A stretch of DNA of 64,000 nucleotides from Bilabrum cf. latius. Lineage: Eukaryota. Shown here piece after piece: positions 1,491-54,900 of this stretch. The stretch's first letter is position 1, and each line of letters starts with the position of its first letter. The translations under genes were made by a program, and so were the position numbers. The stretch is from positions 868,001 to 932,000 of the forward strand of contig OZ237753.1 of the NCBI GenBank assembly GCA_965178125.1, in the 5' to 3' direction. Below the pieces are notes generated by a model that was not told the origin of the DNA, searched no databases, and saw only the letters and a list, made by a program, of their open reading frames with translations.

Positions 1491-3522
1491 ATGGCTGCTG
1501 TTGCTGGGGCTGTCCCAGACGATATCGTAGAGCAGGCGAAGAAAGTTGGAATCGCCGAGAAGGCTGCTTCTAGTCTATACAAGGCGTTCAAATCCTTTGA
1601 TGCAGATAACAGCGGCGCTGTTGATCGGTCAGAGCTTTGCAAAGCATTGGAGCTCTCGGGGGTCCGGGACGCACCACACCAAGTTGGACTGTTCTTCAAA
1701 TCAACAAAGACTGAAGCAGATGGCCGTGCAAATTTCTCGGAGTTCTGCCAGGTATGAGCAAGCGAAATATGCAAAGCTCTCGTCTCTCGTTGACATTCGT
1801 CTCACAAGTTCCTCTGTCAGGAGCCCGAAGTCCCCACGCCGCCCTCCATCGCAGATAATCGCCAAATTTAAATCATCCTCCGGCATCGGTGCCGTGGTAC
1901 TCAAAGCATCTGGCCTGAAGACCTTGGAGGGAGTGACCGGAAAGCATTCTTACAGCGACGACGAGCGCATCGCTTTCGCCGAGCACCTCAACAACGTCTT
2001 CTCCGATGATGCATACCTCTCTGGTAGCAAGTACTTCCCCGTCGACACCGAGACCAGCGAGCTTTTCGAGGCCATCTCAGACGGAATCGCACTCTGCAAG
2101 CTCGTGAACCTGGCCAGCCCCGAGACCATCGACGAGCGCACCATCAACTTCCCAAAGAAAGGAAAGAGCCTAAACCGGTGGGAGATGCAGGAGAACCAGA
2201 AGCTGGCCATCAACTCTGCCAAGGCCGTGGGGTGCAAGGTGGTGAACCTGCATGCCGACGACCTGATCGACTGCGTGGCCACGAGCAAGGAGTACATCGT
2301 GCTGGGCATCGTGTGGCAGCTGGTGCGCATGCAGCTGCTGCGGAGCATCAACGTGAAGGAGAAGCCGGAGATGATCCTGCTGCTGAAGGAGGGCGAGGAG
2401 CTGAAGGACCTGCTGAAGCTGGCCCCTGAGAAGATCCTGCTGCGGTGGTTCAACTACCACCTGGACAAGGGTGGGTACGGGAAGAAGATCAAGAACCTGG
2501 GATCTGACCTGAAGGACAGCCAGGCCTTCTTGGTGCTGCTGGGGCAGATCGACGCGTCTTGCGTGAAGGAGGGGGCGTCGGCCATCGCAGACTCGAAGGA
2601 GCGGGCCGCCGCCGTCATCGACGCGGCCCGCGCCATCGGGGCCAAGAGCTTCATCAAGCCGGTTGATATTATTGTAGGCAACAGGCGCCTGATTCTGGCG
2701 CTGGTGGCTCAGATCTTCAACACCAACAGCGGACTGGAGATCAAGAAGGAGGAGGTGGAGGCGGCTTTCGAGGCGGCCGGCTTGGGCGAGGACGACGACT
2801 CGTCCGCCAACCGCGAGGTGCGCACGTACAAGCAGTGGGCGTCCTCGTTCGACCTGTCCTCAACGTCCATCGGCGGCGACTCCACCACGCTGACGGACAT
2901 GCGGGAGAACATCCGGGACGGGGTTGCGCTGCTGCAGCTGATCGAATGCATGCAGCCCGGGCTCGTGGACAAGAAGAAGTGCACGCTGAAGCGGTCCAAG
3001 CTGAACAAGTTCAAGGAGGTGGAGAACTGCAACTACGCTGTGGAGCTGCTGACCAAGGAGCTCAAGGTCAACCTGCCGGGCATCGGCGGTGTGGATGTGA
3101 ACACGGCAAAGCCGAACGTGATGGAGGCGATCATGTGGCAGCTGATGCGGCTGTCTGTCATCAAGCTGCTCAAGAAGCTGGGAGGGGGCAAGGAACCCAA
3201 GGACTCAGAGATCGTGTCTTGGGCCAACAAGACCGTGGCTGCCAGCGGGAGCGAGCGCAAGATTTCGTCTTTCCGCGACAAGTCGATCGCAAACGGTCGG
3301 TTCCTGCTAGACCTGCTTGCGGCGATCGAGCCTCGCGCGATCAACGAGGAGCTGGTGACGGATGGAAGCACCGACGAGGAGGTCAAGCAGAACTGCAGAT
3401 ACGTTCTGTCTGTGGCGCGCAAGATTGGCGCCAGTGTGTACATCACCTGGGAGGACATCGCGGAGGTGAAGCCCAAGATGGTGATGCAGCTCATCGCAGG
3501 TATCAAGGGTAAATCTGGGTAA
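1491..3522 (+). CDS. Fimbrin/plastin copy 1 (EF-hand headpiece + 4 calponin-homology domains), ~642 aa; exons 1491-1751, 1855-3522
   Basis: EF-hand DADNSGAVDRSE; HSYSDDERIAF, DGIALCKLVN, PETIDERTIN, EKILLRWFNYHL, SVARKIGA, EVKPKMV are fimbrin motifs; phase-0 intron GTATGA...CGCAG; ends TAA. Confidence 0.93.
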
Positions 3523-6117: not shown

Positions 6118-6157
6118 TGCTATCATGCACGTGGCCAAGATCAAGGCGGCCAAGTGA
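3867..6157 (+). CDS. Fimbrin/plastin copy 2, ~651 aa; exons 3867-4127, 4463-6157
   Basis: Two canonical EF-hands (DTDKSGKIDESE, DKDGDKQIDFGE); same CH-domain motifs as copy 1; intron GTGAGA...TGCAG at the same position; ends TGA. Confidence 0.93.
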
Positions 6158-6852: not shown

Positions 6853-9800
6853 ATGCGGACGTGCATAGGCGTTCTCGCTGCCATTGCGAGCGTTGTGGTC
6901 TCGATTGAGCTTCCCGCTACGACGAGCTTTTCCCTGAGTTCGTCGCGAGGATCCATTCTCATTGGTACAGTTCGTGACTCCTCTAGTTCTGATGCGTCCT
7001 ATTCCATCCAGTCTGGTGGCTCGTTCGGGTGAGTATTTGCAGCAACAGCCTGCGAGGTCGCACGCGGTCGCACCGTTCGATCGGTTCGGCACAACTATGT
7101 CCACTAATCAGACATTCTTGTAATTGTTTTGTGCGTACGTTCGTGTTCGCAGATCCGACAGGAGCTTCGCCATAGACGAGATCTCAGGCCGCGTGATCCT
7201 GACGGGCGGAACTTTCGAGGCTGCCAGCCACACTCTCGTGGTCCGGGGCACTGAGCCCGACGGAGCCTTCGGTGAGACAGACGTAACCATCAGCTTCTCA
7301 GATCTGGGCCAATCGTGTCCCATCGATCACGTGAGCATCGGCACGAGCGGGGCCTCGTGCGCAACTTCCGCAAATGGCCAATTTTGGTGCTGGGGAAGCT
7401 GCCACCCCGACACGTGCGGGTACTCCGGCGCAGCCGAGACCACAGCTGCGTCCCTCCGAGATGCAGACAACCGGATCGGCCTGGCTGCCGCCCTGCAGCC
7501 GATGCCCTTCGCCCCCACCGCTGCCGAGGGAAGGGTCGTGGAGGTGCTGGGGCTCGCGGGAGAAAGCACCGCCCAGCAGACCCAGTGCCTCAGGACCGAG
7601 CTGGGGAACATCAGGTGCTGGGGAAACGCAGACTATACACCGTACAACAACATCAACAACAACATCATCGCTAACCCCGGGGACGCCCCTGTGCAGCGGG
7701 GCCTGGGCCCCGTGTCTGTGGGGCTCGCCAACGTGCCTGCCCAGCGGACCGCCGTGGCCCTGTACGCGGGCGTGAACCACTTCTGTGCCGTGCTAGACCA
7801 GGTGATCGCCGGTCGATCCAACCTGGAGTGCTGGGGCAGTCGTACGCTGTTCGAGTCCGACTCGGCCATCGACAGCACCGCGGGTGCGTCTCCCTTCTCT
7901 CTCGGGGGTGAGATCGTGGACCTCGGGGGAAGGACCGTCAAGTCCACACCACACGCGGTGGGACTGTCTCGCCACACTGGTTGCGCGCTGACGACCGATG
8001 ATGAGGTGTATTGCTTCGGCCGCGACATCCTGGACTCGACTCGGGTGATTAGCTAGGTTGAGATCGGGATATCCATGGCGAGCTCCTTTGTGCCTGGAAT
8101 GATCGGAGCCAACACCCGGGCGGTGTGCGTGCTTCTAGTCGACTCAAGCGACAACCCCATCTCAGCCTGCTTCGGAACGATCGTGCATCACGGCACTGCC
8201 TTCGGGTCGAGTGCAGCATCTCCCCCATATCAAACAACATAGCGTAGTCTGGGGAAAATCACAAGCTGGTCAACTCTTAGCACTGTGGCAATATCGAATA
8301 TTCAGGGCGCACCAGTATCCTATGCTGTTGTGCAAGGTGGAGTCTGCATCGCGTTCAAGGACAGTCCTCGCCGAAACGGGCCAAGGATCCAGTGCGCCCG
8401 TCATGGGCTGGAGGGCGACTCCTTCGGGGATCCGGCTGATCGGCGGACCTTCCACGTGTTTCCAAAGCTCCGCAACGGATGGAGAGAGATATATACCGAA
8501 AAGTAGGCCGGAGTTTAGGTGACAACCTCTACTACACAGACCGTGCGGTCCATCTACGGCAAAGGGTGCGCGGTGTGCGCCATCGTCGACGGGCTTACCC
8601 CCGGCAGCACTGGCGACGTGCGGTGCTTCGGTTGCGACGGTGAGGGCTACACACTCTTCGGCAACAGCGCACGGGGCACGCTTGGGTATGGCACGGATCT
8701 GACAGGGCCCGTGGGCTCGTCTGACTTCAGCGGCAACGTAGTCGCTGGGTACGCTGCGACAGCTCGGACTCACTCTTTCGCTGGGTCTCGGTGTAGCACG
8801 AACACCGCAAGCATGCTCGAGTTCACGAGTCCGACGGTACGTCAAGAGATCTCTATCGAAGAAGGTCCCGCTGGCAGGACAGTGGTGCAGGCAGCTGCCA
8901 CTCCCAGTGCTCCGGGTGCCACTGTGTACTACTGGCTGGATGCTGCCTTCTCCGACTCGAGCAAGTTTACGTGCGACCCGATGACCGGCGAGGTCACCAT
9001 CAACGACGAGACTGACCTTGAGTCTCTTTCCGAGGATGAGCGCACGTCCTAGCTGGGTCTGCTTGCGTTCTAGTCTGGCCTCGATGAGCAGTTCATGGGG
9101 TTCGTCCGGTTCTCGGTCCAGATTACTGACGCAGTCGAACCCATCGAGTTCTCCACTCCGAGCCAGGCAGTTGCCCAGGCCCTTGCTTACGACGGCGTGT
9201 TTGAGTACACGATCGAGGACCCGCTCGCTGTGCTGCCCAACCCAAGCGGCTCTGGCATCCGAGTGACCTCTGGGGTCCAGGCATCCGCTAGTGGCAGTGG
9301 TATTGACTCTCTGGGAGTGCAGACCGTGGTAAGGTCCGCGATCAAGCCCGGCGCCACCTTGCTCGATGCCTCTGATGTAACTGTTTCGATCGGCACCTCC
9401 AGCTCAGAAGGCATCGTGCTCGTGGTCGACCGCGAAGACCTTTCACCTGGCGAGTACGGCATCCACGTGCAGCTGGTGGGACTCGACGACGCGGGCTAGG
9501 TGGTCCCAGGGTCCGAGCAGCCGATCGTGGTGTTCATCGTGTTCAGCGTGTCTTGCGGCACGGGCGAGCGACTGACCCAGACCGGCACATGCGCCGTGTG
9601 CGCCCCCGGCACGTTTTCTGCTGCAGGTGCCACCGAATGCACCCCGTGCCCCGCGACTGGCTTTCAGGACGAGGAGGGACAGGGCGAGTGCAAGGTGTGC
9701 GCAGAGGAGCTGCCTGCCCAGCGATGGCTCAAGCACAGCAGTCCCGGCCAATCTACTCCGTGCCCAGTGTGCGACGAGACCGCCGTGGCAGAGGGCACTG

Positions 9801-12800
9801 ACGCCCGGTCGACGTGCGTGTGTCCATCCGATTCGTACGAGAAGAACCCGGCGGCTGGCAGGACAGGCACGGAGTTGCAGTGCGCCGAGATCCCCGTGAT
9901 TGCAGCCGTCGGAGACAGCACGGAGAACCTGGTGGAGCACTCGCTGGGTGCACCGCAGGGCCAGTCCCGCGGTCTGCCGTCCGACGCCAGTCCCATGACG
10001 TTCACCGCCGCTCGTCTGGATGCAGCTGCGACCTCGCCCCGGTTCCGTCTGGTTGCTCTGGACACGCCAGCGACGTCGATCGGATTCGGGCTCGCGTCAG
10101 CGGCCGGCGAGTCGGGCAGCAGCAGTCAGGATGCTTCTTCTAGCACGGCGCTGGTGGACGTGTTCGAGTCGACCAACAAGGCGCTCGCATTCTGGGACTA
10201 CGAGGCCTTCGTGGCCGCCACTGGCGGGCCTGCCGCAGCCACAGTGCGCGTGGTGCTCGATGACGGAATCAGCGGGTCCCCGTGCGCTGCTGGGCAGGAG
10301 CTGAGCTCTGCATGTGCCGCAAGTCCCGCAAGCTCTGACCTGACCGTTTCCATCACGGACATCCTCGACCAGCCCCACATCAAGCTCGCGGGCAGTGTGC
10401 TCGTCATCACCGAGAACCAGCTGGGTATCACCGCAGCAGGCGATGCCAGCCAGTGGCCAGAGGCACCCCGCACTAACGCTGTGGGTGAGCTCGGATCTGC
10501 TCTGGTGGCAGCAGGCGTGCAGGACCCCAAGAACGGTGAGACTGTGTCTGTAGTGTGCACCGACAGCGAGGACTCAGTCATCGCTGCGTTTGTGTCCACT
10601 GACCTGAAGGCCACTAGTGCCGTGAACTTCGAGTCCATGGCGGGCAAGAGCGGAGCCACCAGAGAGGGATCCAGCGTGTTCTTCGACGGGCAGTGCATCG
10701 CTGAAAGGAAGAGCGGCGAGTGCCCGCCCGGAATGCCTGTGTTCATCTGCCAGTCGATTATCGTGGACATCGACAGCGACGTGGTGCCGTTCAGGTTCCA
10801 GATCAGGGACGCACCCGATGCACCTGTGGAGGTGGGCTCTGGATTCGACGAGATGACCGTCCGGGAGCATGCACCTGCTGGCACTGGAGTCGGAGGTGCT
10901 TCATTCAGCGTGTTTGACGAGGATGAAGGGGCCAAGCTCAAATGCAGCGTGGAGGGTGCAGCTGCTTCGCTGTTCAAGGTATCGCCGGTTTTGGCCACCG
11001 CGGACGCAGACGGCTTCGTGGACAAGCAGAACATCCAGTCCGGGTCCAGTATCTCCAGCGCAATGTGGATGCTCAAGTCGACTGCAGAGCTCGACCACGA
11101 GAGCGAGGCGCTGGACGAGGACGGGCGCATCACCGTGCAGGTCGTGTGCGAGGACGAGACGGGCCTCAGCGTGTAGATGGAGGCGAGGACCGTGTGGGTG
11201 CAGGACGTCAACGAGAGACCCGTCGCTCTGGGCTTCATGGGAGATGGTGGAACGAGCGTTTCAGTGGACGAAAACGCTCCGGCAGGGACCGAGGTGGGCG
11301 TGTTCGAGGCAATGGACCCTGATGACGGCGAAGCAGGAACTCTGACCATGCGGCTAGAGGGTGCAGATGCGTCGAGCTTCAAGATCGAGATGCAGGACGG
11401 AGGCAGTGCGTCCAACGAGGGCGAGCTGGTGACCGGGGATAATTATTACATAGGAATGACCGTCATGGTACGGGAGGGGAATTCATTCATAACATTACGA
11501 AACAACGCGGCAGAAGGATCGGTCTGGATTGTGAGAGAGTTTTACGAGAATAGGCTAGGGAAGTATCTTCGGCTGCAAGATGCATTTGGACGCGAAACAT
11601 ATGGGCTGATCGGATATACATGGCATGGCGAGTTTCTGTACGACCTTGTCATCCCAGCAATGGGCCAGCAGCTGGGCCCCGGCACCACCCGCCGGGCCAG
11701 CATCAAAGTAGCAGACGGAGCCTAGTTGGACCACGAGGCCAAGAGCACGTACACGTTCGAGATCGTGGTGGACGATGAAACCGAAGAGGGACTCACCGGT
11801 GGCCGCAGGCTCACTGCCGATGGCAAGCCCAGGCGCCTCCTCGACACGCGTACCCAGGTGACCATCAGTGTGAACGACATCAACGAGGCGCCAGTGTTCT
11901 CCACCTCGCCGAGCACCAGCTATGAAGTCAACGAGAACACAGCTCCAGGCACTGAGCTGGCAGGAGACTCCCAGGTGGCCATTGACCAGGACGAGGGCGA
12001 CTCTGTGACCTACAGCCTCGTGAACAGCGCTGCAGCCTCCTTCTTCGCCATCCATCCCACGACGGGGCAGCTGCGACTGGCTGCCGGGGATGCACTCGAT
12101 TTCGAGGACAGCAGCACACCGAACGTGTTCGACTTCACCATCAGGGCAACGGACTCCGCCGGACTGATTGACACCCGTGACGTGCAGGTCAGCCTGCTCG
12201 ATGTCCAGGAGAGACCCTCCATCCAGGCCACTGGTGGGGCGCCATTCGAGGAGAACACCGCCCCTGTGACTCTGGCCGCCATCAGCTTCAGCGACCCCGA
12301 TGCCGCCGATGCCGGACTCTCTCGTTCCGACCTGACCATCGACTGCTCCGCGAGTGGCACGGCTGTCAGCGTGTCGCTTGCTGCTGGCGCCCTGCAGCTG
12401 CAGCTGGACGAGCCCTTGGACTTCGAGACGTTCGTGGATGCAACCTGCACCGTGACCATTACCGACACGGCTGGAAATATCGCTTCCACCGAAGTAGAAC
12501 TGACCGTGCAGGATGCACCCGAGGCCCCGGTGCTGTCCGAGGAGGTGTACAGCTACTCGGTGGATGAGAATGCAGACCTCGGCGATCCGATCCTGGCCAG
12601 TGGAACTGTGATCGCGGCCACGGATGAGGACGCGGGCCAGTAGGTACAACTGCGGTTCTCCATCACTGGTAGGAACACCTGGAAGGTGTACGTGAACCCC
12701 TCGACCGGCGCACTGATCTACTGTGGGCGCGGCGAGAACTACGAGTCCTTCCCTGTGGGCCAGGAGTACCTCGAGTACACCCTGCACGTCACCGACACGA

Positions 12801-15800
12801 GCGGGCTGACGGACACCGCAGTGCTGAGGATCCACATCAACGACCTCCCTGAGGCACCGAAGCTGGTGAGTGCCTCCACCCTGTCGCAGGTCCACCGGCA
12901 TATAGCCAAGGACGCCGCCCCTCAGTCGAAGGTCACCGGCCCCGCGCTGGTGGTCAGGGACGAGGATCGCGCCGACGACACGTTCTACTTTGAGGTGACT
13001 GGGTGCACGGGCGAGGGCTGCGAGGCGTTTGGGTTCTCCCCCGAGACCGACCCGAAGCTTCGCCTGATCGACCCCTCCCTGCTGGATGCAACCGTGGGGG
13101 CCTACGAGGTGACGGTCACGGTGCGTGCCAGAGACCACCCCAACGCCGCCGAGGGACTCTTCACAGAGGAGGGCCTGCTGCGAGTCATCGTCACGTGCGC
13201 CGAGGTCGCATGCCCCGGTGGCCAGGCAGCCATCGGGACCTGCGGGCCCAACAGCTCGCCGCAATGCGTCGATCTGGACCAGACGGGCCCTGCCGTCAGC
13301 GGTGACGAGGAGAACAACTTTGAGGTCAGCTTCCGAGGGAGCGCCGGCAGCACCAGCGCGAGTGCGAATCTGGAGGTGGTGCCTCAGGCGGCGGGCCTGG
13401 GCGAGAGCGAGGACACTCAGACCAGCAGGGACGACGCATGCGGGGCACAAGTGAGCCTCACGTGGGCCGTGGAGGCAACGGGAGCGCAGGTCACCAGCCC
13501 CGCTGCTCAGCTTGATGCAATCCGGTTCTTCCGTGTGACAGGCAGCGCCTCGTCCTTTGCAGATGAGGAGCCCGCGAGGGCCGTGGTAGGGTTGAACGGG
13601 GCCAATGGTGGTGAGACCGTCATCATCAGCACGCCAAATCTGGCCCTCGGCGAGGCCGGCACTGTAACAGTGGATGAGATCCTCGTGTCGCCCGGCTGCA
13701 TCGACTCGCAGGCCAACCCGAGCGGGCTGCTGTCCCTGCCCGAGACGTGCTTTGTGCCCGTGCGCCCGCTGTCCACCGGCGAGGAGCTGGCCATCGAGGC
13801 AGTCTCTGTGCCCACTCGCTGCCATTGCAACATCTGTGGCGTGAGCGAGGGCCAGCAGGCCAGCACCTACCGGAACCCGGTGTGCGAAGTGGACTCGCTG
13901 GCTGCTTACTCTCTCGCGACCTCGTCTTGGTGCCCCTCCTGCACCGTGTGCTCCGGGGAGCAGTTTGAGACCAGGGACTGCCGGGCTCAGGATGCAGCGG
14001 ACGAGGCACACGGCACGGTCGCGGCTCAGTTCATGGACCGGGAGTGCGCCAACTGCGTACAGTGCGAGTACGATGAGTACGAGTACTCGTCATGCGGCAA
14101 TGACGATGGTAGAACGGACCGCGTGTGCTCGAACAAGATTGTGGACGGCTCGAACAAGAGACGCAAGGACGGCAGCACTGGCTCTAGGGGCCGGCTGTAC
14201 AACGCGCACAGCGATGGTCTCCGCAACGAGCGGTGCGAGTCGGAGATGGTGTTCCGGCTGTCGGACAGGGGCCAGGACGAGGGCGCAGTGGGGTGGTTCA
14301 AGATCGACGAGGTTCGCAGGGGTGACGTGCGGGAGGTGTACGCGTTCCAGGCAGCCAACCACAACGAGTTCACAATCATCATGGGGCGGTTTAAGAACGC
14401 CGACCTGCGATGGAGGCTCAGCTACCTGGGGATCGACCGCCGCCGTGAGAGCATGCCCTCCGAGCGCCCGTCCAACGATGACCCAAGGTGGAGGCAGACC
14501 AACATGATTGAGCAGCGCAGCGCGTGCGTGGAGACTTTCGCGCCGGCCACCATCCTGGAGGGCCCCCGCCGGTCCGTGAGGGGCACTGGATCCAGGGGCC
14601 GCATCGAGAATGCGTTCGACCTGGAGCAGAGGAGCGAAGAGTGCCACGTCATTGCTGACGTCCGGTACGTGTGCTCCGATCGTGGGGCCGGGTCCGAATG
14701 CGCCGAGGAGCAGACCTTCCTGATTCGGGAGACCCGCCGCGGCGACGTGCGCCTGGCCCAGACGGTCACTCTGCCCAAGGACACCGAGGCGAGGCTGGAC
14801 TTTGGAGTGCAGAAGAACGCCGACCTGCGACTGACGCTCTTCCATAGTGACGGCAGCGGTGGCTGGCGCCGCACCAACGATATCGACGTGCGCAACAGGT
14901 GCGCCCGCACCTTCGAAGAGGCCGTGGTGGAAGAGAGGCAGGACTCGGACAGGCGCACGTGGCGCAGAGGCAGGCTGTTCGGAGCATTCGGCGAGAAACG
15001 CGCTGCCAACGGAGACGTGATCGTGCATGTGGACTACTTCGACCTGGATGGACCCGCTACGGAGCGGTTCGTGATCGAGGAGACCCGCCGAGGCGATGTG
15101 CAGTTCGCGAGGCAGGTCACCATCCAGAACGGCGAGCGTGTGACTCTCAACCTGGGCCAGTTCAAGAACGCCGACATTCGGTTCGGGCTGTTCTACGAGA
15201 ACAGGCAGGACCGCGGTGACTGGCGCAAGGGCCACGAGATCGACATCCGCACGGAGAAGGTGGAGACCTTCGAGGCAGCGGTGGCGCTGGGCCCCTCGAG
15301 CAACACCACGAGGCGCACGGGTCCTCGGGGCCGCATCGAGGGGCTCTTCGGAGAGATGCGCGCCCCGGGGTGCAACGTGCACGTCAACGTACGCTACTGG
15401 GACGAGCACAGGTGTGACGAGGACCAGGTGGAGACCTTCCTGATTCGCGAGACTCGCCGCGGCGATGTGCGGTTTGCCAAGACCGTGACTATCCGCAACG
15501 GATAGACCGTGGACCTGGACCTGGGCTCATTCAAGAACGCCGACCTTCGTTTCACTCTGTACCATGAGCGTGAGCCCGGACACTGGACCGAATCCAACGA
15601 GATCGACATCCGCACGCACTGCGTGGATCTGTACAACGACGCAGACGGCAGCGATGACGCCGACACGATCCTGGGCAGGGGCGGCCGCTATGACCAGTAC
15701 ACCGGCTCGCGGGGCCGCATCATGACCGTGTGGGACTCCAAGAGGGCCGGGTCACAGTCTGGCCTCGTCACCGTGGACGCAGTGACCGGGGCCCAGACCC

Positions 15801-17704
15801 CCGTGCAGGAGGGTGACGTCATCGTACGTGTGGCGTACCGCCACCACCACGGTGCCGACCCGAAGCGGTTCCTGATCCGGGAGGTGCGCCGGGGCGACGT
15901 GACGATCAACAAGGGGGTAACCCTGCAGGACGGAGAGGAGAAATGGGTGAACCTGGGGCAGTTCAAGAACGCCGATGTGCGCTTCGGGCTGTTCTACTTC
16001 GACCGGGTGCACGGGTGGCGCATGGGCCGCACGGTGGACATCCGCACGGATACGGTAGAGGACTTCAGCCCACTGCAGGAGGCAGGTGGGTATGCCATCG
16101 AGAACCATCGTCACACTGGCAGTAGGGCTCGTCTGGAGACCATCACTGGGCAGAACCGGCTGTGCGACGGGAGCGTGGCATTCCGCGTGCTCTACTGCGA
16201 GGACGAGCGGTATGCCCCCGAGAGCCGGACCTTCGTGCTGAGGGAGACCCGTCGCAGGTCCTTTGCTGCCTCGATCGAGCTGAACAACTGCGAGGAGACC
16301 GTGGTGGTGATCCCCCAGTCGGACTTCTCCACGCACGACAGCCACTGGCAGATGTTCGACTGGAACGGCCGCGGGTCATGGGATGCATATGGCTCTCGGT
16401 TCACCGTGCGCAGCTCCTCCAACCGCGAGGAGGACGTGTGCCCGTCCCACCTTGACATCCCCGACGAGGAACAGTCCGCAACTACCCGCCGCTCTCTCCG
16501 CAGCGCCTCGGGTGCGCGCAAGGTGCAGTCCCTGCGCAACTCGCTCGCCAGCGGAGGCGTGGGCACTAGCACCCGCGTGCTGCTGCCCTCCGCCGCCAGT
16601 CTGCAGGCCAGCATCGACCCCCTCGCCCTCGGGTCTGCTGCCGCTCGTGCCGCGGAGGAAGCCGAGGATGCAGGTGCGGGTGGCGCCCAGTTCATGGCGG
16701 TGGCCTCCGCAGCCTAGTCCTCCATGCGCTCTGCGCTGGCTCGCGCTGATCCTAGTCTAGCGTCCCAGGTGGCGCTGTTCGTAAACGCAGACCCAGAGGA
16801 CGGCGAGCTGGGCGTGTCTGTGTTCCCTGCCGCGCTTGAGCAGGACGTGACCCTGGCCATCGGGGCGTTCGCCAGCAGCGGCGGGCTGGCTGCGGACCTG
16901 GGTCTGGATGCGACCAGCGGACAGGAGGGCCCCACGGAGGGCCCCCTGCAGCTGGTGAGCGAGGCGGAGCTGACCATCGACCGGACTGGAGCGGCGGCGG
17001 GGGCGGCAGATGCCGGCGCCGGCCCCGGGGACTCCACGACCGACGGCTCTGCACAGCCTGAGGACGGGGGTAGCTCCGACGCCGCAGCACCAGGCCCGCT
17101 GGATGCAGTCGTGTCCTCGCCGGTGGTACTGGGCGTCGTGGGCGGGGCTCTACTGGTGGCCATCGCGGCTGTGGCCGTGGCTGTGGTCACCGCTCTGCGG
17201 AACCGTGGGGCGCCGCGCGTGGTGCCCTCCATCGAGGAAGCGACGCTCCAGTCGCAGCAAGGCAGTGCTTCCACCGAGCTGGGGGGCAGCCTCAGTGCTT
17301 CCACCGAGCTGGGGGGCAGCCTCAGTGCTTCCACCGAGCTGGGGGGCAGCCTCAGTGCTTCCACCGAGCTGGGGGGCAGCCTCAGTGCTTCCACCGAGCT
17401 GGGGGGCAGCCTCAGTGCTTCCACCGAGCTGGGGGGCAGCCTCAGTGCTTCCACCGAGCTGGGGGGCAGCCTCAGTGCTTCCACCGAGCTGGGGGGCAGC
17501 CTCAGTGCTTCCACCGAGCTGGGGGGCAGCCTCAGTGCTTCCACCGAGCTGGGGGGCAGCCTCAGTGCTTCCACCGAGCTGGGGGGCAGCCTCCGCGTGA
17601 TGACGAGCCGGCGCGCGTCTGTCGGCAGTGGAGACGTGGCTCTGGCAGCTGCAGACAGCAGCGACAGCGAGGGAGACATGCCAGTGTCACCGCTGAGTGC
17701 TTGA
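6853..17704 (+). CDS. Giant single-pass surface protein (~3,575 aa): signal peptide, RCC1-like repeats, cadherin repeats, Cys-rich (GCC2/3- and TNFR-like) modules, six unrecognised repeats, TM helix, repetitive tail; exons 6853-7028, 7153-17704
   Basis: Signal peptide MRTCIGVLAAIASVVVS; CWG/CFG RCC1-like motifs; cadherin motifs LDHE, LDFE, DVNERP, DINEAPVF, AxDxDxG; CAVCAPGTFS; TM VVLGVVGGALLVAIAAVAVAVVTAL. One frame 7154-17704 with 12 TAG (8054, 8240, 8504, 8516, 9050, 9071, 9497, 11174, 11723, 12641, 15503, 16715), no TAA/TGA until terminal TGA. Confidence 0.88.
14177..16420 (+). repeat. Six tandem protein-level repeats (~110-125 aa), consensus TGSRGR...F.I.ETRRGDV...LG.FKNAD.RF.L...W...IDIRT
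   Basis: Motifs recur six times in the translation (sixth degenerate). Confidence 0.85.
17263..17592 (+). repeat. Coding minisatellite, 11 perfect copies of CAGTGCTTCCACCGAGCTGGGGGGCAGCCT (SASTELGGSL)
   Basis: Direct count of 30-bp units. Confidence 0.97.
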
Positions 17705-32510: not shown

Positions 32511-32553
32511 TTTGGGGAGTGGCTCGGGATTCGTGGGCGACGATTCCTGCCCG

Positions 32554-32777: not shown

Positions 32778-35306
32778 TCATTCGGCCCAGGCGCCGCCCG
32801 TGTAGGTGGCAATGAAGGCGTACATCTCCGCGGCCTCCTGGATGACCATGCTCGTGGGCTTGCCCGACCCGTGCCCCGCATCGATCTCGATCCTGCCGAT
32901 GAGCGGGTTGGTCTGCTTGCCCAGCTTGCAGGCTGTGTGCTGCAGCTCGGCCAGCATCTTGAGGCTGTGGCAGGGGACCACACGGTCGTCATGGTCCGCA
33001 GTCATGATGAGCGTGGGGGGCAGCTGCCTGCCCTCGTCCTCCGTGGGCTTCACGTTGTGCAGTGGAAAGTACCGCAGCATGTACTCGAGGTCTTCTTCCT
33101 TGTCCGGGTCACCGAAATCGGAGCACCACGCGCTGCCGATGGTGTGCTTGTGGAAGGTCACCATGGTGACCGGCACCTGAGACACCACGCAGCCGAAGAG
33201 CTGGGGCTGCTGCAGCATGGTGGCCAGGGTCAGCAGCCCCCCGTTGCTGCCGCCCAGCGAAGCGATCTGCTCGTGGGTGGAGATGCCCCTCCGGACGAGG
33301 TCCCTGTTGACCAGGAAAAAGTCGTCGTAGGACCTCTGCTTGTTCCTCAAGGAGCCCGCCTTGTGCCACTCCACGCCGAACTCGCCCCCTCCCCGGATGT
33401 TGGCCACCACGAAGACACCCCCCACCTTCTGCAAGAAGGCCAGCCGGAAGGGGCTGAAGTAAGGGTTGATGCTGATGTTGAATCCGCCGTACCCGTACAG
33501 AATCGTGGGCGCAGGCTTGCCACTCTCCGCCACCTTCTTGGACCTAGTCACAAAGTAGGGCACCTTGACCCCATCCTCCGCCTCGGCCCACAGCTGCTCG
33601 CTCACAAAGTCGTCCGCGTCGAACCCCGGCACCTCGGCGTCGTACACTCGCTGCAGCAGACAGCTCAAGTCCCCGCTCGCGCCGATCTCGCTCTTGACCC
33701 CGTCCGCTGGCCGGATCGACTGCTCACCCCCTGGCTCGCCCCCCGCCACGGTCAGCTGGGAGAGATCCATGCGCCGGATGGCAGCGGGAGTCACAAAGCT
33801 GGTCAGCTGGAAGAAGATCTCGACGTCCTCCGGCTCCGAGGTGCTGAAGGAGTAGACCGACACGGCGTCGGGCAGGGGGACCTCGAACCGCGCCGCCGCC
33901 GGGTGCTCCAGCGACTGCACGTAGCACTTGTGCTTGCAGTCCTCCGCGTACTTGAGCAGCAGCCAGCCCCGGGGCCCGCCACCCAGGCTCGCGCTCTCCA
34001 GCACGACAGGGCCCTCTGCCTGGGGAACAACCTCCTCTGCGGCTGCCACTGCCTTGTCCAGCTGCTCCCTAGTGGGCTCCGTGGGCGCCCCGCCCTTCCA
34101 CGCGGGAGGCAGGGTGATCCGGACGATCTTGTTCCTCGGCGCGTCCTTGTTGCAGTAGAATAGGTGCGACCCGCTGCCCTTTGGGTAGGTGCCGAGGTAC
34201 TGGTAGAGCGCATCAAAGTTGTCCACTGCCTTGACCAGCCCGAGCAGGGGCGGCTCCGTGCCCGCCTCTTTGGCCGCGCGCACCTCTTCGAGCCACGCGG
34301 GGAACTGTTCCTTCAGGTCGGCGTAGAAGAGCCTGTTGACTGGGTCGCATCCGTCGTCCATCGACACGAGCAGGGTGTCGCTCTCGTCCGAAACGGTGGC
34401 CGAGAAGCGCCAGAGCGGGTGCTCAGGCGTGCGGAACACCACCACGTCTTCGGACTGAGGCGTGTGCAGCCGATGGAAGCACAAGAACTGATTCTCGTTG
34501 GCGTCAGTCTCCGTGCCCTGCTCCAGCACCTCCTCCGCCTCAGCTGCTGCATCATCATCGCCCTCTCCGCCGGCCGCGCCCTCTCCCGCTCCTCCAGCGG
34601 CGGCTCCCGATCCATCTGCATCCTCCCCACCGCTGAGCACCTCTGCTCCAGAGCCCTTGAGCCTTTCCTCCGCACCCTTGATCTTATCCGACGCGGGGTA
34701 CCTTGAGTAGAAGAACCCGCTCCCATCCTTGAGCCACTCGATCTGAGAGAACTTTGCGTGCTCGATCACGTCTTCGGGCAGGTCCTCGCCGTCCGCCGAG
34801 CGCACTTTGATCGTGGTCCAGTCGCTGCCGGCGTGCGAGAGGGCGTACGCGAAAAACTTGCCATCGCGATCCCAAGCAGTGGCTCGAATCGCCGTGGTTC
34901 CCTTCGGATACTCCTTATTCAAATCCATGAATACTTCAGGCTCTGCCATTGATTCAGGGGTGGCTTCTGTGCACCGGTAATGGATGTACTAGTTCAACAG
35001 CCCGGGATTCCGGTAGAAGTAATAGTGGTCTCCATGCTTCGCTGGCGATCCTTGCTTCGCGTAGCTATATTGGCTTTTCATCTGTTCAGCAAATTTGCCC
35101 GCGAGCTCCGCTCCACCCGTTCGTTCTAGATGCTCCTTGTACACCTTATCCTATGCCAACACGTACTCCTTCGTCTATTTCGACGCTGGCTGTTCCAGCC
35201 ACGCATACGGATTCTGTACGCGAATATCACCGGCGACATGGTCATTTTTCCGGCTGTCTTCATCTCTGCTTGCAGGTGGATACTCAATTTTAGTCACAGC
35301 CTTCAT
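32778..35306 (-). CDS. PREP: Prolyl oligopeptidase (S9A), ~842 aa
   Basis: NPYAWLE, GSDW, LYGYGGFNIS, NIRGGGEFG.EWH, GGSNGGL (Ser), DHDDRVVP (Asp), AGHG (His); TAG at 35175, 35151, 34989 in the conserved N-terminal domain; ends TGA. Confidence 0.93.
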
Positions 35307-35463
35307 TCTTGGACGAAAAAGTACGGTCTCGACACGTTGGGTGGACGTCACCACCGTGCCATGCACTTTCTACGGTGCGGAACACATGTGGTGAATTGAT
35401 CAAATATCGTGCAGGATAGCACGGCCCACGCCCGCATTCGCACACAATTGGATGCACCTTTCT

Positions 35464-37092
35464 TTACCAAGTCGCCCCTGCAGCCATCTTGGGCCCGGGC
35501 CCCCCACTAGCCCCCTTCGCCTGCTGCACCTGTTCCCCAACATTGGGTCTCCACCATCCCGCCCGATCCCTGTCCTTGCTCACCTCCTTCTCCATCCGTT
35601 TCAGCCGGTGCACCATGCCCAGCGCCTCCGCCCCGGGACCCACGCGCGATAGGTCCGGCGCCCACGCAAGCACGCGCTGCCCCCCCTTTGCCATTGCCCC
35701 ACCGGCATTTCCACCCGCACCCGCACCCGCCTCTACCTCGACACCCGCCCCCTGCCCACTCCCCGCTAGCGGCACCCGCAGAGCACCAGCACCCTCTTCC
35801 AAAGCCACCCCAGCCCCAGCTCCAGCCTCGGTATCCCCTCCTCCTCCTCTCCCTCCTCGCCCCCCACCTCGCGCCATAGACTCTGCCGCGACCGGATCAG
35901 CGGTCAGCTCGGGGTACAGCTCCCTCCTGACTCGGTCGCAGTAGGCCACCACGGAAGGACACCTCCCCAGCGCGTGTTCCTTGGCTGCCCCCACCATGGC
36001 CACACGGAACACCTGCTCCAGCTGCGCGAAGATGGCCGCGTCCTCCTCCGAGAGTTGCTCCCCCGTGATGAACCGCCGCCCGTCCTGCAGCACAGCCTCG
36101 GCCACGTCCAGGCACTCGGCCGCCATGGCAGCTGCGTCAGCCGCCCCGTGCCGCCCGGAGCCGTGCGCGAAGCACGCGTCCCTGACCTTTGCCCTGACGA
36201 TGGGCACCACGATGGCGCGCATGATCGAGGAGAGGACGGGCTCCAAAAATGCCGCGCTCATGAGCTGCATGTTGCCCTCGTCGCTGACCCAGTTGTCGTA
36301 GATGCCGAACTGGTAGAGAACATTTTCCAGGCTAAGCCGCAGGGAGGCTGCCTGCGCCCAGGCGAGGGGTGCCGGGTACTGCGGCGCCTCTTCTACATGC
36401 TCGCCTGACGATGTCTGAGCAGCAGCAGCGGGCGCTTGGGATCCGCTGCCAGCCGCAGCTGCCGCTGCGCACGGCAGGCCCACCAGCGCCTTCCCCTGGG
36501 ACCTCGCTCGGAGGACTCGCCTTGGCGCGACTAGCATGCGCCCGATGCGACGCGGCTGCGGTGTGCAGAATAACTTATCATGAAACTAAATAGATGGGCA
36601 GTTTGGCATCGAGACATTGGCTGCATCGCAGCCCGTTCTAGTGGTGGTGTGCCTCACGCCTGCTTCTGAAGTCGCGGCTCCGAACGTGTTCACCAGGTAC
36701 CTGACAATCATGGCACTGTCGGTCACAACAACATCTTTACTCGCATCCACAGCGTCGGCGTGGGTGTGTCGCAAGTACGGAATTTTGCCGCGCGGTGCCT
36801 TGCTAGGACTCGTGGGTCCGACCTTGTGTTGAATGTCAAACCCGCGAAGGATCGCGGCTATTTTGTTCACAAACGGCGATCCAGAGCATGGGAGCCCGAG
36901 CTGAGCAAGACTTCCGTACAGTCGCACCTGCGAATTGGCTCTATGCACCCCGAATAGAGGCTGGTCTACACTGGTGGATCGGGGTATCGAGGAGCACTGC
37001 ATCGTCCGGATGCACTGCCAGATTGCAAGGATCAAAGCACCAAAGATAGCGGAAGCTACAATGGCTAGAGCCCAACCATACGTTGGAACCAT
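35464..37092 (-). CDS. GST-fold protein of the failed-axon-connections/metaxin type with N-terminal TM; possible intron 36556-36657
   Basis: SPFVNKI, APRGKIPYL, DSAMIVRYL, FITGEQLSEEDAAIFAQL; ORFs 36586..37200 and 35464..36537 share a frame separated by one TAG; start uncertain (37092/37170/37200); ends TAA. Confidence 0.7.
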
Positions 37093-37214: not shown

Positions 37215-39341
37215 ATGCAAGATTCGTTCGAGGTACTCTCTTTCAATCTTCTAGCTGAGTAGCTGACGAACAGCCGCTACTTTCCAGCCTCGCATTCTGC
37301 CCTGTTGAAATGGAAGTCCAGGCACAGGCATTTACTGGCGTCGCTTGAGCCCAACTTACGAGCTTCGATTTCATGCTTGAGCGAAGTTGATTTTCTTATC
37401 ACAGGCACCCCGAGCAGAGCCAAGCAAGCCACACTGGTGGCGAGAGATGCGGCAAAGGCCGGCAGCGCTCCGCCTTTGACACCTGCAAAGTCCGATCTGC
37501 TGAAATTGCTGACAAAGACGGCAGGCCACGGTTTCATTCATTCGCTGCGCAGCGGCGGAAAACCAGGCGGTCTCGTGGTTTCGTGGAGCTTAAACGAGTG
37601 GGAGGCCATTGCGGCTGGAACGATTGCCTTGAACGATGTGGGTGAAGCCATCGCCATGGGTGCAAAGGACGGAGCCGAAGCCGTCATTGAGGAAGCTGAG
37701 CGTCACAACTTTGCAATCTTTGTGGCCCTGCGGCCTCTCCGCGATTTCGAGCGGATGGGGCGCCGCGGCGTGGTGGTGAGCTGCAACCACCTCTTCTGGG
37801 ACGAGTCCAAGGCGTGGCTCAAGGCGGCACAGGCGCAGACCGTCAGGCGCGCGGCCGCCGAATTCCGGGAGGTCGTACGGCAGACTTGCAGCTCTGTCGA
37901 CAATATGGCGGGTTGGAGCTGGCCGGTGGTACTGGCCGGGGACTGGAACTCGATGCCTGGCTCGGCCGCCCTGGCCACTTGCGACGACGTGCCTCTGCCG
38001 GTACTACCCAGCGACGGCCTGCCAGGTATCAGCAGAGATGCATCGCACGCCGGAGATCGTAAGTAGCAAGAGTCGGGCATCGCGCTTGCGACCAGTATCC
38101 GGGCGCACGTGGATGCTCTGGGGTGGGACGCAGGGCTGGCGCTGTGGGGGCCCACTGGCGGTGGCACCGGCAGCAGCAGCGGCAGTAGCGAAAAGGTAGG
38201 TCCGGGACCGGGGCCAGCTGGCGTGGGAGAGGGTGCGAGCGAAGCAGAGGGCAGCAAAGAAGGCGGTAGGGGAGAAGAAGAGGCAGGCGCAGAGGAAAAG
38301 CAGGCTGCCGTGCTGGACGCGGGCTGCCGCGTGTCTCCAGCCATGGCTCTGGCGGCGAGGAGGTTTGGCGTACGGCTGTGCTCGGAAGACATGCTAAAGG
38401 ATGGTGCTGCTGGTGCTGCTGGCAGGAAGGAGCAGAGGAAGGCGTGGCTGGGGCGGCTGCTGCGGGAGCTGGCTCTGGTCCCTGGGGTGGTGGAGAAGTA
38501 TCCTCATGTGGTGGCGGTTGAGGGCGAGGGCGAGGGCGAGGGCGAGGGCGAGAAAGAGGACAAGGTGGGCGGGGATGGACCGAAAGAGGACAGCGGGGCT
38601 GCCTCTGGTGGGTCTTGTGGGGGCGGTGGCCTGGTGAACGTGCAGCTGCGCTGCATTGCAGCGGGGAAGACCGACCCCCCGCTTCTCTCATCGGCTAGCC
38701 CCGGGGCGATCCTAAACCAGCAGCAATTAGTGGATGCGTTCAACGCGGTTGTCACCGACCACCTGGACCGACAGGAGAAGAAGGCACCCGCCCCGGGGAG
38801 GAGCCATGCAGCCGCTCCTTCGCCGGGGAGCGATGCAGCCAGGGAGAAGGGCGGTGCAGCTGCCAGTGGCGAGGCAGCTGACGGTGATGCTGCCGCGGGG
38901 CCGGTGCTCACCATCTCGTCGAGCGCGAAACGAACGTTCGTCAAGACGAGCCGCCTGCCCGTTCTGGCGACTCCCCCCACCATGGTGCAGCGCGGGCCCA
39001 GGGACGGCGGAGAGGGGCCGTGCAGGGACGGCGGGTGGTCCGGCAGCCGGCGGGACAAGCGCGCTCTGTTTACGACGTGGGTGAAGCACTTCCACGGGCA
39101 CATCGACCACGTATTTGCAGAGGGGGGCGAGCAGGGGCTGGAGCCAGTGGCCGCCTCGGAGCTGCCCTCGCAGGAGTGGGCCTGCGCCGGGACCGAGGGG
39201 ATGCCTTCCTTGGTGCAGCCGTCGGACCACTTGCCAATTCAGGTGCGGCTGCGATTTCCTACAGCTGCGGTGGGTCTCGGTGCGGGAAGCGGCAGCAGCT
39301 CTGGCGCCGCTGCCGGCGGTGCGGCCGGACAAGTGCCGTGA
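37215..39341 (+). CDS. Exo/endonuclease/phosphatase of the CCR4/Angel/nocturnin group, ~708 aa
   Basis: VLSFNLLAE*L, CLSEVD, CNHLFWD, LAGDWNSMP, GHIDHVF, PSDHLP; TAG at 37260 and 38064; ends TGA. Confidence 0.82.
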
Positions 39342-42628: not shown

Positions 42629-43873
42629 TCACGCCCACACGTGCAGAGTGGTGTCCCAGCTGGCGGTGCACACAGACTTGCCATCCGGAGACACCCCCAC
42701 CCCCGACATGCGCTTCTTGTCCGACTCGCCCTCGGTGCCGGTGTGCTCGATCTTGTGATACATGCGCTCCTTGCTGATAGTCTCCCAGGCCACCGCCTTA
42801 CCATCCTCGTACGCTGCGAAGAGCACCCTTCCGCTCTTGCTGAAATCCAGGCCGTACACGCCCCCGTTGATGGATAGCCCAGAGGCGGCCGAGGACCTAG
42901 GGGCGGCGTACTTGGCCACCTGACCCTTGGACCGGGTGTCGAAGAGCAGGCACGAGTAGTCGTCCGACCCTGTCGCGAAGGAGTACCCGTTGCCCATGAA
43001 GGCCACCGCGTTGATGTCCGACTCGTGCCCGATGTACGAGAGCTGCGGCTTGCTGCCGGCGCGCATGTCCCAGATCAGGGCAGTGCTGTCCACCGAGCCC
43101 GACACGAACTCGTTGGGTCTCTAGGGATTGAGCGCCACGCTGCGGGGGGAACAAGAGAGAGGGGGGGGGGGGGGGTGGGGGGTAGCACGGGGGAATGCGG
43201 CGATGTGGTGCAGCGCAGGGGGCGCATGCCATCCCGTGCCTAGCATCCGATGGTTCGTGCAATATACTCACAACATGACATCTGCGGTGTGCCCCCTGAA
43301 GTCCTGCTTGTTCTTCGCCTTCTCCACGTCCCAGAGAGTGCACGTCCAGTCGCCGCTGCTCGTCAGAATCGTGTTGGTGCCGTCCACGAAGCGGCAGCAA
43401 GACAGGTAGCCTTCGTGGCCTGTCAGTTCGAGCATAGGCTCCTTAACCAATCGTCCGGGCATGTCAAGCTTGTATAGCGAGCAAGTGTTGTCAAGCCCAC
43501 CGGACGCAACCGTTCGCCCTTCCGCAGTTTGGTCGAACGCGCAGGTCATCACCCAGGCGCTCACCAGGTTGACTCCGTACTTCCGAATCTATTCCATTGC
43601 ATCCCATACAATTAGCTTGCCATCCTAACTCGCAGACACGAGGTGCTGACTATCAGCAGCCCAATGCATCGCGTACACTTTGCCGTAGTGGCCAGCAAGC
43701 ACCCTTCTGGCTTCGAACATGAACTCTCCCTCGCCCTTGCTTTTCATGCAGCCAGCAAGCGTATCATGCGCTTTCTCTCGTTTCAACGCCTTCACCCGAT
43801 CCTTCAGGGCCTGCACTTCCTATCTAGCTGCTCGCCGCCTCTCGTACAAATCACTCGATCCAGCAGCTGCCAT
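42629..43873 (-). CDS. GNB: Heterotrimeric G-protein beta subunit, 370 aa; exons 43873-43272, 43139-42629
   Basis: RRVLAGHYGKVYAMHW, LVSAS*DGKLIVWD, AWVMTCAF, GGLDN, GHEGYLSCCRF, TSSGD, GHESDINAV, FATGSDD, FSKSGR, TASWD..L.VWA; TAG at 43820, 43625, 43589, 43121; ends TGA. Confidence 0.96.
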
Positions 43874-51995: not shown

Positions 51996-54900
51996 TTAAA
52001 ACCTAAACCCTCCCGACTTGGCCTCCGGCTTGTGGAACTTGGACGCCTTGCTCGCGTTCTCGCGCATAAAGTCCCGCCGCTGCCTCTGCTTGGCCCGCTG
52101 CCGCCTTACCGCCAGCGCCCGCCCAGGCGCGGCCGTGTCCACCGTGGCCCGCACGGGCACTGGCCTCTCGTACTCGGGCTGCGAGCCCACCACGTCAAAG
52201 ACCCACCGCGAGGAGGGCGAGTCCACCACCAGACGGCCCCTGCACGACTTGCCGTACTCGCGGGGGGCGAACGTCACGATCACCTGCGCGGGCTCCGTGC
52301 CCACCTCTCCCCCGCCCTCGGGAGGCGCAGGGGGCAGAGTGCCCCTCCCGGGATCCACCCTGAGCTCGGCTGCAGCGTCCAGAGTGAAGTACGCCCGGAA
52401 AGGCTCGGGCTCGCTGCCCTCCCCGAATATGTCGATCGCCACGCGCTCCACCGCGCCCACATCTGCCTGAATCTCAAGCACGTCGTCCGGCGCGGGGTCC
52501 GTGGCTCGCACGGAGAAATTGAACCGCCACTGGCCCCCAGTGGACTTGGTGATCACCAGCTCGGCGGGGACATGCATGGGCTTGCGGGGGCGGAAATCCA
52601 TGACGAGCCGGATCGGGTCGTCCGAATCCCTGAGCTTGCCTCCCCTGTTAGCCACCACCACGTCCAGCTGCCTCGCCAGCGCGAGCGTGGCCTCCTCCGG
52701 CATGTCGGCGGGGGGCTCCACTTGCACGTCGAAGGTGCACCGCAGCACCTCGCTCTGCGTGAGACCCGGCAGCGGCAGCGCCACCTCCTCCACCTTGCGG
52801 GACCGAGCCTTGCACGCCAGTTTGACCACCCGCTTGGAGGGGGGTGCCTCGGGGCTGCCCACCAGGTCGTACCTCCACTCCATCCCGCGGGAGGGCAGGC
52901 GCACCACCATGCGCCCGCTGTACTGCCGGATCCGCTGCGGGCTGAAGCCAACCGGCAGCTGCACCTGCGCCCCCGGCCCCAGGCGGATCGTAGAGGGACG
53001 CAGGAGCTGGAACACGGTGCTGGGCCCGTCTAGCGAGCTGCCAGGAACACCTCCTCTGCCCCTTTGGCCAGCCCCCGCCCCTGCTCTTCCGATGCTGGGC
53101 AGTGTTCCACCTCCCGTCGCCTGCTCGTCCCCACTGACCTCCACCGCCACTTCGATCCGCACGGGCTCGTCGAACGGGTTCTAAAAGGGGACCGAGGTGC
53201 TCGAGCTCAGCCCGGCAACCGCACGCAGCTGCACCGTCCGCACCTCAGTCTCGGGCGCCTCCCCCTCCCCCTGCAGCCGGAACTCCCACTTGCCAAGCCG
53301 GTCCGAGTTGAACACCAGCAGGCCGTTCTCCGCCCGCCCCACGCTTGAGGGGTTGTAGGTCACGCGCACGTCCTGTGACGAGAGGGGAGCCAGCTCCACG
53401 CCCGCCGGATCCACCGTGAAGTTGCGCTCGTTGTCCAGCGAGGCAGCCGCGAGGGCGGCATACCGCGTGGGGTTGTCCAGAGTCACCAGACAGGACGCGG
53501 AGCTACCCACCGGGGCGCGGAGCACAGGCACCTCGACTGGTGGAGCGGGCGCCGCCTCCATCTCGAGCTTGTACCACAGCTGCCCCGCCCGCTCGCCGGT
53601 GAACGTGACGGCCCCCTGCTCCTTGCCGGCCTCCAAGGGGCAGTACAGCAGCTCGTACACCTTGTCTTGTTCCCTGGGAGCGAGCGCCAGCACGGGATCA
53701 CCCACGAGCCCCTCGCCCTCCAGCGCCACCTGGAACTCCGCCGGCTCGTCCAGCGGGTTGTCGATCTGCAGGCGCACCCTAGCAGCCTTGCGCACGGTGG
53801 CCCGCAGCTGAAGGGTGTCCTCGGGCGCTGGGGGCTTCACCTCGGCCTCCACGGCCCACCAGCGGAACCGGCCCGAGCGGTCGTCCACGAACCGAACGGT
53901 CCCGCGGTACAGACCTCCGGCCAGGGGCGCAAAGGTGAGCTCGTATCCGCCCTCCGCGGGCGTGCTCTTGCCCGTCCTGGGGTCGGTGTCCCCCGCCCTT
54001 AGGGCCAGAGAGGGGTCCCCGCTGGCGCCGATGAGGTCCGATTCCACCCTCAGGGTGGCAGGGGCCGCACTGAAGCCAGTCACCGGGAGCTCCTTGACGA
54101 CAGTCTCCCGCGCGCTGCACTCGATCTTGAGCGTGCCCTCGGCCGCGGGGGCCTCCCCTACCCCAGTCAGCACGTACTCGATGTGCGGCATCTTGGGGCG
54201 CGTCTGGTTCCGCACGATGAGGCGCGCCCTCTCGACCGTGGTCCAGTCCGGCTTGAACTTGAGCGGGATGCTTGCCGTCTCACCCGCGTTGACGAGGAAG
54301 GTGGACGGCACCTCGAAGTGGTGCCCCCGCGGCGACAGCTGCCTGCCTTCCCTCGGACTCTTGGCGTCGCTGCCGAAGAGCTGGCTGGCCTCCTCGCCCA
54401 TGCTCTCCTCCCTCACCTCCAGCACCCGCAGCTCGCACCGCATCAGCCACTGTTCCCTGGACTGGTTCACCACAGGCAGGGGCTGCTCTACACTGGCTCC
54501 CGCGGGACACCTCAGGGTCAGCTCCCTCTTGAGCGGGGGCGCTCGCAGGGCGACATCCAGGTCGTACACCCGCGTCTCGCGGCGGGATGCCAGCACCAGC
54601 CGAGCGGGGTACTTGCCGGGGGCTTTCGGCAGGATGGACACGCGCGCCACGCCCTCCCAGGCGGCCGCCTCTCCGCCCCGCTGCGCCGCGGCCGCCGCAT
54701 CATCGTCCTCGTCCTCCGCCGCCAACACGGCCCCCGTTTCGGTGGCGCCTAGGCGCTCCGCTCTGTCCTCTGCATCCCGCTGCTCCTTGCGCGTGGCCAT
54801 CCGAGAGACAACGGCGAAGTCCTGCCATCCGGGTGAGATGGCCCCGTCCGCGCGGTAGAAGGGCGAATCGATAGAGATCTGGTAGGTCCACGGCCGCAGC

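Follow-up and report, generated by a model that had tools for sequence, protein, structure and literature searches.

The 64,000-nucleotide stretch of DNA presented above (the window) carries a gene for prolyl oligopeptidase (POP) with three in-frame TAG codons, and further genes interrupted in the same way. Our analysis indicates, with a probability of about 0.9, that cytoplasmic translation in the source organism reads UAG as Gln and retains UAA and UGA as terminators, which is the pattern of NCBI table 15, a rare code with precedents in a few other protists. We assigned UAG to Gln because TAG stands on conserved Gln columns, exchanges with CAG and CAA in orthologs and is kept in transcript-like contigs. 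The three POP TAGs are most likely ordinary Gln codons in an intact, expressed and selectively constrained gene. By analogy with known codes, UAG would be decoded by a dedicated tRNA-Gln with the anticodon CUA, which could not pair with UAA, and eRF1 would no longer recognise UAG efficiently.

The prolyl oligopeptidase gene and the columns of its TAG codons

The POP gene (32778..35306, minus strand) was delimited from its translation, its Pfam and PDB matches and colinear contigs as a single exon of 842 codons followed by a TGA stop. The ATG start codon lies at 35306..35304 and the TGA at 32778-32780. With TAG read through, the minus strand formed one open frame over 32778..35387; under the standard code, this frame meets four TAGs and then the TGA. 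The fourth of them (35370-35372) is located upstream of the ATG and beyond the transcript-like contigs. The minus-strand translation, with TAG (CTA on the plus strand) shown as an asterisk, contains NPYAWLEQPASK*TKEYVLA*DKVY...YYFYRNPGLLN*YIHY. The asterisks correspond to residues 44 (35175..35177), 52 (35151..35153) and 106 (34989..34991) on the minus strand; an earlier note on this DNA had given this sequence, and the span of the three codons (34989-35177), exactly.

Both the N-terminal beta-propeller domain (Pfam Peptidase_S9_N, PF02897; E-value 8.9e-76, 255.7 bits against a cut-off of 24) and the C-terminal alpha/beta-hydrolase domain (Peptidase_S9, PF00326; 8e-51, profile positions 2-211 of 213) were present. 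Solved PREP chains in the PDB matched POP with a lowest E-value of 1.8e-152, and the stretches GGSNGG, DHDDRVVP and AGHGSGKP agreed with them residue for residue. The catalytic Ser/Asp/His motifs that the earlier note called intact were thereby recovered, as GGSNGG, DHDDRV and AGHG, in alignments to solved structures; we take these stretches to be the carriers of the PREP catalytic Ser-Asp-His triad. Judged by both domains and the triad stretches, the product is a prolyl oligopeptidase (MEROPS S9A), for which cleavage after proline is predicted. Mammalian PREP (PDB 1h2w, 3ddu and 9q5g; E-values ~1e-146) has the same two-domain S9A architecture with the catalytic Ser/Asp/His stretches kept, whereas POP adds a low-complexity insert of ~55 residues after residue 207. 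This insert (34520..34690, minus strand; residues ~208-262), an addition relative to the solved PREPs, is rich in Gly, Ala, Glu and Asp. The transcript-like contigs keep it, and a shorter version occurs in the metagenomic relative described below.

Homologues of POP were sought in a representative library of 1.84 billion proteins, and the best 150 of 16,492 matches, taken as 50%-identity representatives, were aligned with the query in MAFFT, with X at each TAG and residues counted over non-gap rows. The closest representative was 50% identical to POP and the remainder less. The column of residue 52 contained Gln in 124 of 139 rows and Glu in 8, and that of residue 106 contained Gln in 127 of 143 rows, His in 14 and Glu in none. 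At residue 44, the 137 rows included 80 Glu, 14 Asp, 13 Ala, 10 Arg, 5 Lys and 3 Gln; the best-scoring PDB chain, 6jci, has Glu opposite this residue. The earlier note, relying on an alignment with mammalian PREP, had placed all three TAGs on Gln positions of the family. For mammals this was accurate, with Gln at positions 44, 52 and 106 in both human and pig PREP (u171356, u42927). Inspection of the three columns, which the note had proposed and which we carried out on the MAFFT alignment, upheld its family-wide statement for residues 52 and 106 but not for residue 44, with its Glu-dominated column. By itself, the site at residue 44 would favour Glu, Gln being found there in mammals only within this sample.

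The G-protein beta subunit (G-beta) gene (42629..43873, minus strand) provided four additional in-frame TAGs. It was identified by Pfam WD40_Gbeta and by PDB G-beta-1 matches at 1e-53, and consists of two exons with a GT-AG intron at ~43139-43273 and a TGA stop. A search with exon 1, in which X replaced each TAG, gave 982 matches, and the best 120 of them were aligned. Residue 83 (43625..43627, minus strand), within the motif LVSAS-x-DGKLIVWD, fell on a column with Gln in all 120 rows and no Glu, and Gln also occupies this position in the PDB G-beta-1 alignments. The column of residue 18 was divided among Arg (38), Lys (37) and Gln (18), that of residue 95 contained Thr (78), Asn (25) and Gln (2), and the TAG of exon 2 stood on a variable column with Gln in 4 of 62 rows.

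Summed over the seven TAG sites of POP and G-beta, the log10 odds against background were +4.72 for Gln, -4.48 for His, -4.99 for Asn and -5.54 for Glu. Gln was the sole residue with a positive value, all others being at -4.5 or lower. Columns with a Gln majority accommodated 3 of 7 TAGs, 5 of 33 CAG/CAA codons and only 3 of 986 codons for all other residues (Fisher p=4e-6), and TAG did not differ from the canonical Gln codons in this respect (p=0.13). The preference of the earlier note for Gln over Leu, Glu, Tyr or Trp is upheld, and on much firmer ground than POP alone could provide, by the conserved columns (89-100% Gln), the log-odds, the ortholog pairs and the contigs.

A diverged relative and the transcript-like contigs

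A scan of metagenome contigs from the Joint Genome Institute (JGI) returned 34 loci. Two of these, L001 and L002, do not differ from each other within the matched region; the POP that they encode has 71% amino acid identity to that of the window over 808 aligned codons. The POP of L001 contains six in-frame TAGs (codons 53, 82, 312, 541, 670 and 788 of 822) and no TAA or TGA. Residue 52 of the window POP is encoded by TAG in both sequences. The TAG of residue 106 is replaced by CAA in L001, and residues 334, 552, 680 and 798, each encoded by CAG in the window, are encoded by TAG in L001. Non-Gln partners were found at residue 44 (TAG in the window, GAA in L001) and residue 81 (AGC in the window, TAG in L001).

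L001 also carries an ortholog, at 47% identity, of the window gene 37215..39341. This gene belongs to no Pfam family, and its TAG at residue 16 (37260..37262, plus strand) lies in the motif NxLAE-x-LTNSRYF, where the L001 ortholog has TAG too. Besides this shared TAG, whose motif is conserved and near the N-terminus, the pair had one CAA/TAG site and three sites of TAG against another codon. When both gene pairs were pooled, the 13 sites with TAG in either species were divided into 2 TAG/TAG, 6 TAG against CAG/CAA and 5 TAG against other codons. A Gln codon was the partner of TAG at 6 of the 11 non-shared sites, of canonical Gln codons at 40 of 75 and of codons for other residues at 35 of 2829 (p=3e-9).

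Between the POPs of the window and L001, synonymous sites were saturated (pS 0.71) and non-synonymous change was low. Since L001 also has in-frame TAGs at this degree of synonymous divergence, the code is common to deeply diverged species. The 116 aligned N-terminal POP codons that include the TAGs gave pN 0.29 against pS 0.85, i.e., the segment is constrained and therefore translated. Regarding gene order, POP (529..2787, minus strand) and the ortholog of 37215..39341 (2971..5436, plus strand) are divergent direct neighbours in L001, unlike in the window, where a GST-like gene sits between them. No tRNA gene was found in L001 or L002.

Seven sequencing runs from three studies contained at least 0.97 of the sampled words of POP; none is recorded as RNA. 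Contigs of four runs (X1, X5, X6 and X7), representing all three studies, were compared with window positions 22000-41999. Run X1 had a flat depth of ~13 over this region. Run X5 reached a depth of 55 within POP but only 0-2 in the flanking DNA, with 4 of 30 bins uncovered, and X7 was similar. The contigs covering 32672-35304 (X5), 32711-35304 (X7) and 31738-35307 (X6) differed from the window at no letter, kept the TAGs and had no joint within POP. Run X6 also contained a joint 36555->36658, with CT..AC on the plus strand, which marks an in-frame GT..AG intron of 102 nt in the GST-like gene (36556..36657, minus strand), and a loose AAAAAAAA end behind 23014, a poly(A) end. From the gene-shaped depth, the one splice joint and the one poly(A) end, we infer that runs X5-X7 contain RNA.

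Because these transcript-like contigs are colinear with the window and keep TAG, neither an intron nor editing is indicated at the POP TAGs. An intronic position of the three codons, the objection that the earlier note had raised against its own reading, is likewise contradicted by the lack of any splice joint in POP. The transcript-like contigs of all three runs stop at 35304-35307, at the POP ATG or within 1-3 nt of it, and an AG is found beside these ends at 35309-35308; the POP mRNA has either an extremely short 5' untranslated region or is trans-spliced. We must also mention a 725-residue database protein, 95% identical to POP, whose N-terminus is the first Met downstream of the third TAG, the start that a standard-code gene caller would give.

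Stop codons, TAG positions and alternative readings

The DNA contained in open reading frames (ORFs) of at least 300 codons amounted to 53.8 kb when TGA, TAA and TAG were all treated as stops. Freeing TAG roughly doubled this value, to 112.8 kb, whereas freeing TAA gave a small gain, to 61.9 kb. ORFs of 3867 and 3400 codons included 7 and 12 TAGs, respectively, and no TAA or TGA. Ten of the 13 gene models ended in TGA, three in TAA and none in TAG, from which we conclude that TAG is a sense codon and that TAA and TGA are stops. The C-terminal ends of four of the 13 (POP, G-beta and both fimbrins) were confirmed by homology.

Use of UAA for Gln, as in NCBI table 6, was not seen: TAA marked gene ends and was never internal in nine gene models with ~13,000 codons. 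Every TAA in the long TGA-to-TGA frames was located either at the end of the protein-like sequence or ahead of the start. In the alignment of the two 96%-identical fimbrin paralogs, the TAA of paralog 1 (3520..3522, plus strand) follows the last aligned residue at a distance of 5 residues, and the TGA of paralog 2 follows the same point at a distance of 10. Another TAA (51996..51998, minus strand) closes the CFAP47/hydin-like gene after 3867 codons with 7 in-frame TAGs. As TAA and TGA act as stops, the code is of the UAG-only type and not code 6. The nine models contained 45 in-frame TAGs, 3 of them in POP and 4 in G-beta, and TAG accounted for ~7% of Gln codons. The CAA:CAG ratio in four confident genes was 24:286.

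The position of TAG within the coding sequence (CDS) was analysed in the same nine models, namely POP, G-beta, the CFAP47-like, cadherin-like and fn3-like genes, and models 23221, 26979, 37215 and 47756. The mean relative position was 0.33 for the 45 TAGs and 0.51 for 468 CAG/CAA codons (Mann-Whitney p=5e-5). The first 30% of the CDS held 27/45 TAGs against 133/468 CAG/CAA, and the last 30% held 6/45 against 150/468. Late TAGs nevertheless exist, at relative positions 0.87-0.99, and the L001 POP is without such a 5' bias. The bias may stem from termination that still depends on position, from unrecognised introns in the 5' parts or from wrongly set start codons. The only apparent in-frame TAG of the GST-like gene (36586-36588) lies inside its 102-nt intron, and some TAGs in less conserved gene models may likewise be intronic. 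The base following TAG did not differ from that following CAG (p=0.31), which speaks against a special read-through context. The preceding base was G in 12/45 cases for TAG and in 236/409 for CAG (chi-square p=5e-4).

Several observations weigh against UAG being a full Gln codon. Residue 44 of POP is on a Glu-dominated column and is GAA in L001, Gln is a minority residue in the variable columns that hold 4 of the 7 well-aligned TAG sites, and of the 11 ortholog partners of TAG, 5 are non-Gln codons. The 5' bias of TAG is not what a simple, complete reassignment would lead one to expect, and the stop-codon count comes from only ~13 genes. The RNA nature of runs X5-X7 was deduced from the features given above, and an automatic flag marks X6 as 'probably DNA'. 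Moreover, the sole tRNA gene in the 64-kb window is that of Ser-GGA, and none has the anticodon CUA. eRF1 is not encoded within the window, and an Rfam scan of the window gave 0 matches.

Among the alternatives, an ambiguous UAG, read mostly as Gln and acting as a terminator in some contexts, e.g., near the mRNA 3' end, would account for the concentration of TAGs in the 5' parts of CDSs, and context-dependent stops occur in ciliates and trypanosomatids. We regard it as unlikely. None of the 13 gene ends was TAG (a small sample, with four ends confirmed by homology), TAGs also occur late in genes, and the six TAGs of the L001 POP are spread along the gene. In poorly supported models, unnoticed in-frame introns or a true start farther downstream could also explain some of the 5' TAGs; one apparent TAG did prove intronic. 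We judged it very improbable that UAA and UAG both encode Gln, with TAA merely rare at high GC content. The bias of CAA:CAG does lower the expectation to an estimated ~4 internal TAAs beside the 45 TAGs. Yet no internal TAA was found in the nine models, the TAA of fimbrin paralog 1 coincides with the C-terminus of its close paralog, TAA in every long TGA-to-TGA frame is at a protein end or upstream of the start, and freeing TAA adds little long-ORF length.

The TAGs might also not be translated as such, owing to introns, U-to-C editing to CAG, a pseudogene or assembly errors. The window does have introns, one of them around the apparent TAG of the GST-like gene, and editing of TAG to CAG would likewise yield Gln. 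This explanation is nonetheless scarcely credible, as the three POP sites and residue 83 of G-beta are flanked by gap-free conserved sequence, and the contigs of four runs, drawn from three studies and in three of the runs with transcript-like depth, agree there with the window at every letter and have no joint. In addition, one of the POP TAGs recurs in L001, whose POP has further ones, and purifying selection acts on the part of POP that contains the TAGs. Finally, UAG could specify another amino acid (Glu, Leu, Tyr, Trp, Ser or Lys), to which residue 44 of POP, with its Glu column and GAA in L001, and residue 18 of G-beta, on an Arg/Lys column, would lend themselves. The log10 odds of -4.5 or lower for every non-Gln residue reduce its probability to practically nil, and Glu in particular was found in only 8/139, 0/143 and 0/120 rows at the three conserved columns.

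The source of the window and its relation to known codes

The GC content of the window ranges from 53 to 71% and is about 62% overall. Besides the genes discussed above, it contains a giant cadherin-domain gene, the GST-like gene, a pyrimidine 5'-nucleotidase and a TPMT-like methyltransferase. The tandem fimbrin paralogs (1432..3522 and 4469..6157, plus strand) encode proteins that are 96% identical, and their conserved part is without TAG. The tRNA-Ser(GGA) gene (7786..7868, plus strand) falls within the frame of the giant cadherin-domain ORF (6992..17704), so the cadherin gene either starts downstream or has the tRNA in an intron. A homologue search with region 880-1500 of the CFAP47-like protein returned only 2 matches (25% and 31% identity), too few for a test of TAG columns.

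The window is best explained as nuclear DNA of a GC-rich, intron-poor, flagellum-bearing eukaryote. Among the matches listed, the named relatives of POP were from land plants (43-45% identity), an amoebozoan (41%) and a mucoromycete (42%), and those of G-beta were mostly from fungi, with a few animals and one chrysophyte (44-52%). Fimbrin-2 fell only into generic eukaryote clusters in Protein Atlas. The named best matches of POP and G-beta, compared without a tree, gave no decisive lineage affinity. An aphelid or labyrinthulomycete affinity was considered but was backed by no result.

A code change confined to UAG, in which UAA stays a stop, was for a long time assumed to be constrained. NCBI code 6, in which UAR encodes Gln, is used by hexamitid diplomonads, ulvophycean algae, Amoeboaphelidium protococcarum and many ciliates. 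UAG is likewise Gln in these organisms; UAA is a sense codon there but a stop in the window. The UAG-only Gln lineages named in the consulted portions of two papers are Iotanema, Protocruzia and two phyllopharyngean ciliate lineages (PMC5304391, PMC11687900).

As set out in the relevant sections of Panek et al. 2017 (PMC5304391), Iotanema spirale (Fornicata), an anaerobic gut flagellate known from its transcriptome, has a nuclear code in which UAG is Gln and UAA and UGA are stops. The window resembles it in that only UAG is reassigned, to Gln. UAG never ends a gene in Iotanema, and TAG was at 0/13 gene ends here, a small sample in which context-dependent termination may have gone unseen. A T32G change is reported for the eRF1 of Iotanema. 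In the figures given there, Gln-dominated columns (50% threshold) received 23% of TAGs and 19.5% of canonical Gln codons; the corresponding values here are 3/7 and 5/33. The main stop of Iotanema is UAA (104 UAA against 15 UGA), whereas the GC-rich window uses mainly TGA (10 TGA, 3 TAA).

The same reassignment in ciliates, in Protocruzia tuzeti and two phyllopharyngean lineages, is described in the passages concerned of McGowan et al. 2024 (PMC11687900). These ciliates share with the window the code table and the expected mechanism, a tRNA(CUA) that would be unable to read UAA. According to that text, they prefer UAA as a stop, and differ in this from the window, a 64-kb DNA of 62% GC that carries multiple genes, among them G-beta and giant genes without introns. 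The text reports no depletion of UAG toward their gene ends, in contrast to the 5'-biased TAG of the window. Our search of the literature, which covered neither subscription papers nor supplementary tables, found no description of a GC-rich non-ciliate with UAG-only Gln.

Tentatively, and with more doubt than confidence, the window could be attributed to an undescribed clade of GC-rich flagellates, neither ciliate nor fornicate. Such a clade would include at least two species with saturated synonymous sites, read UAG alone as Gln, use UGA as its main stop and keep sense UAG from the 3' parts of its genes, hinting at residual position-dependent termination. The window organism would add a further UAG-only case, GC-rich and with UGA rather than UAA as the main stop. 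With genomic DNA available, its tRNA(CUA), glutaminyl-tRNA synthetase and eRF1 would be open to direct study. In practical terms, standard gene callers shorten the proteins of this genome, and table 15 is required for its annotation. Should the 5' bias of TAG extend to the whole genome, it would bear on how complete such reassignments are.

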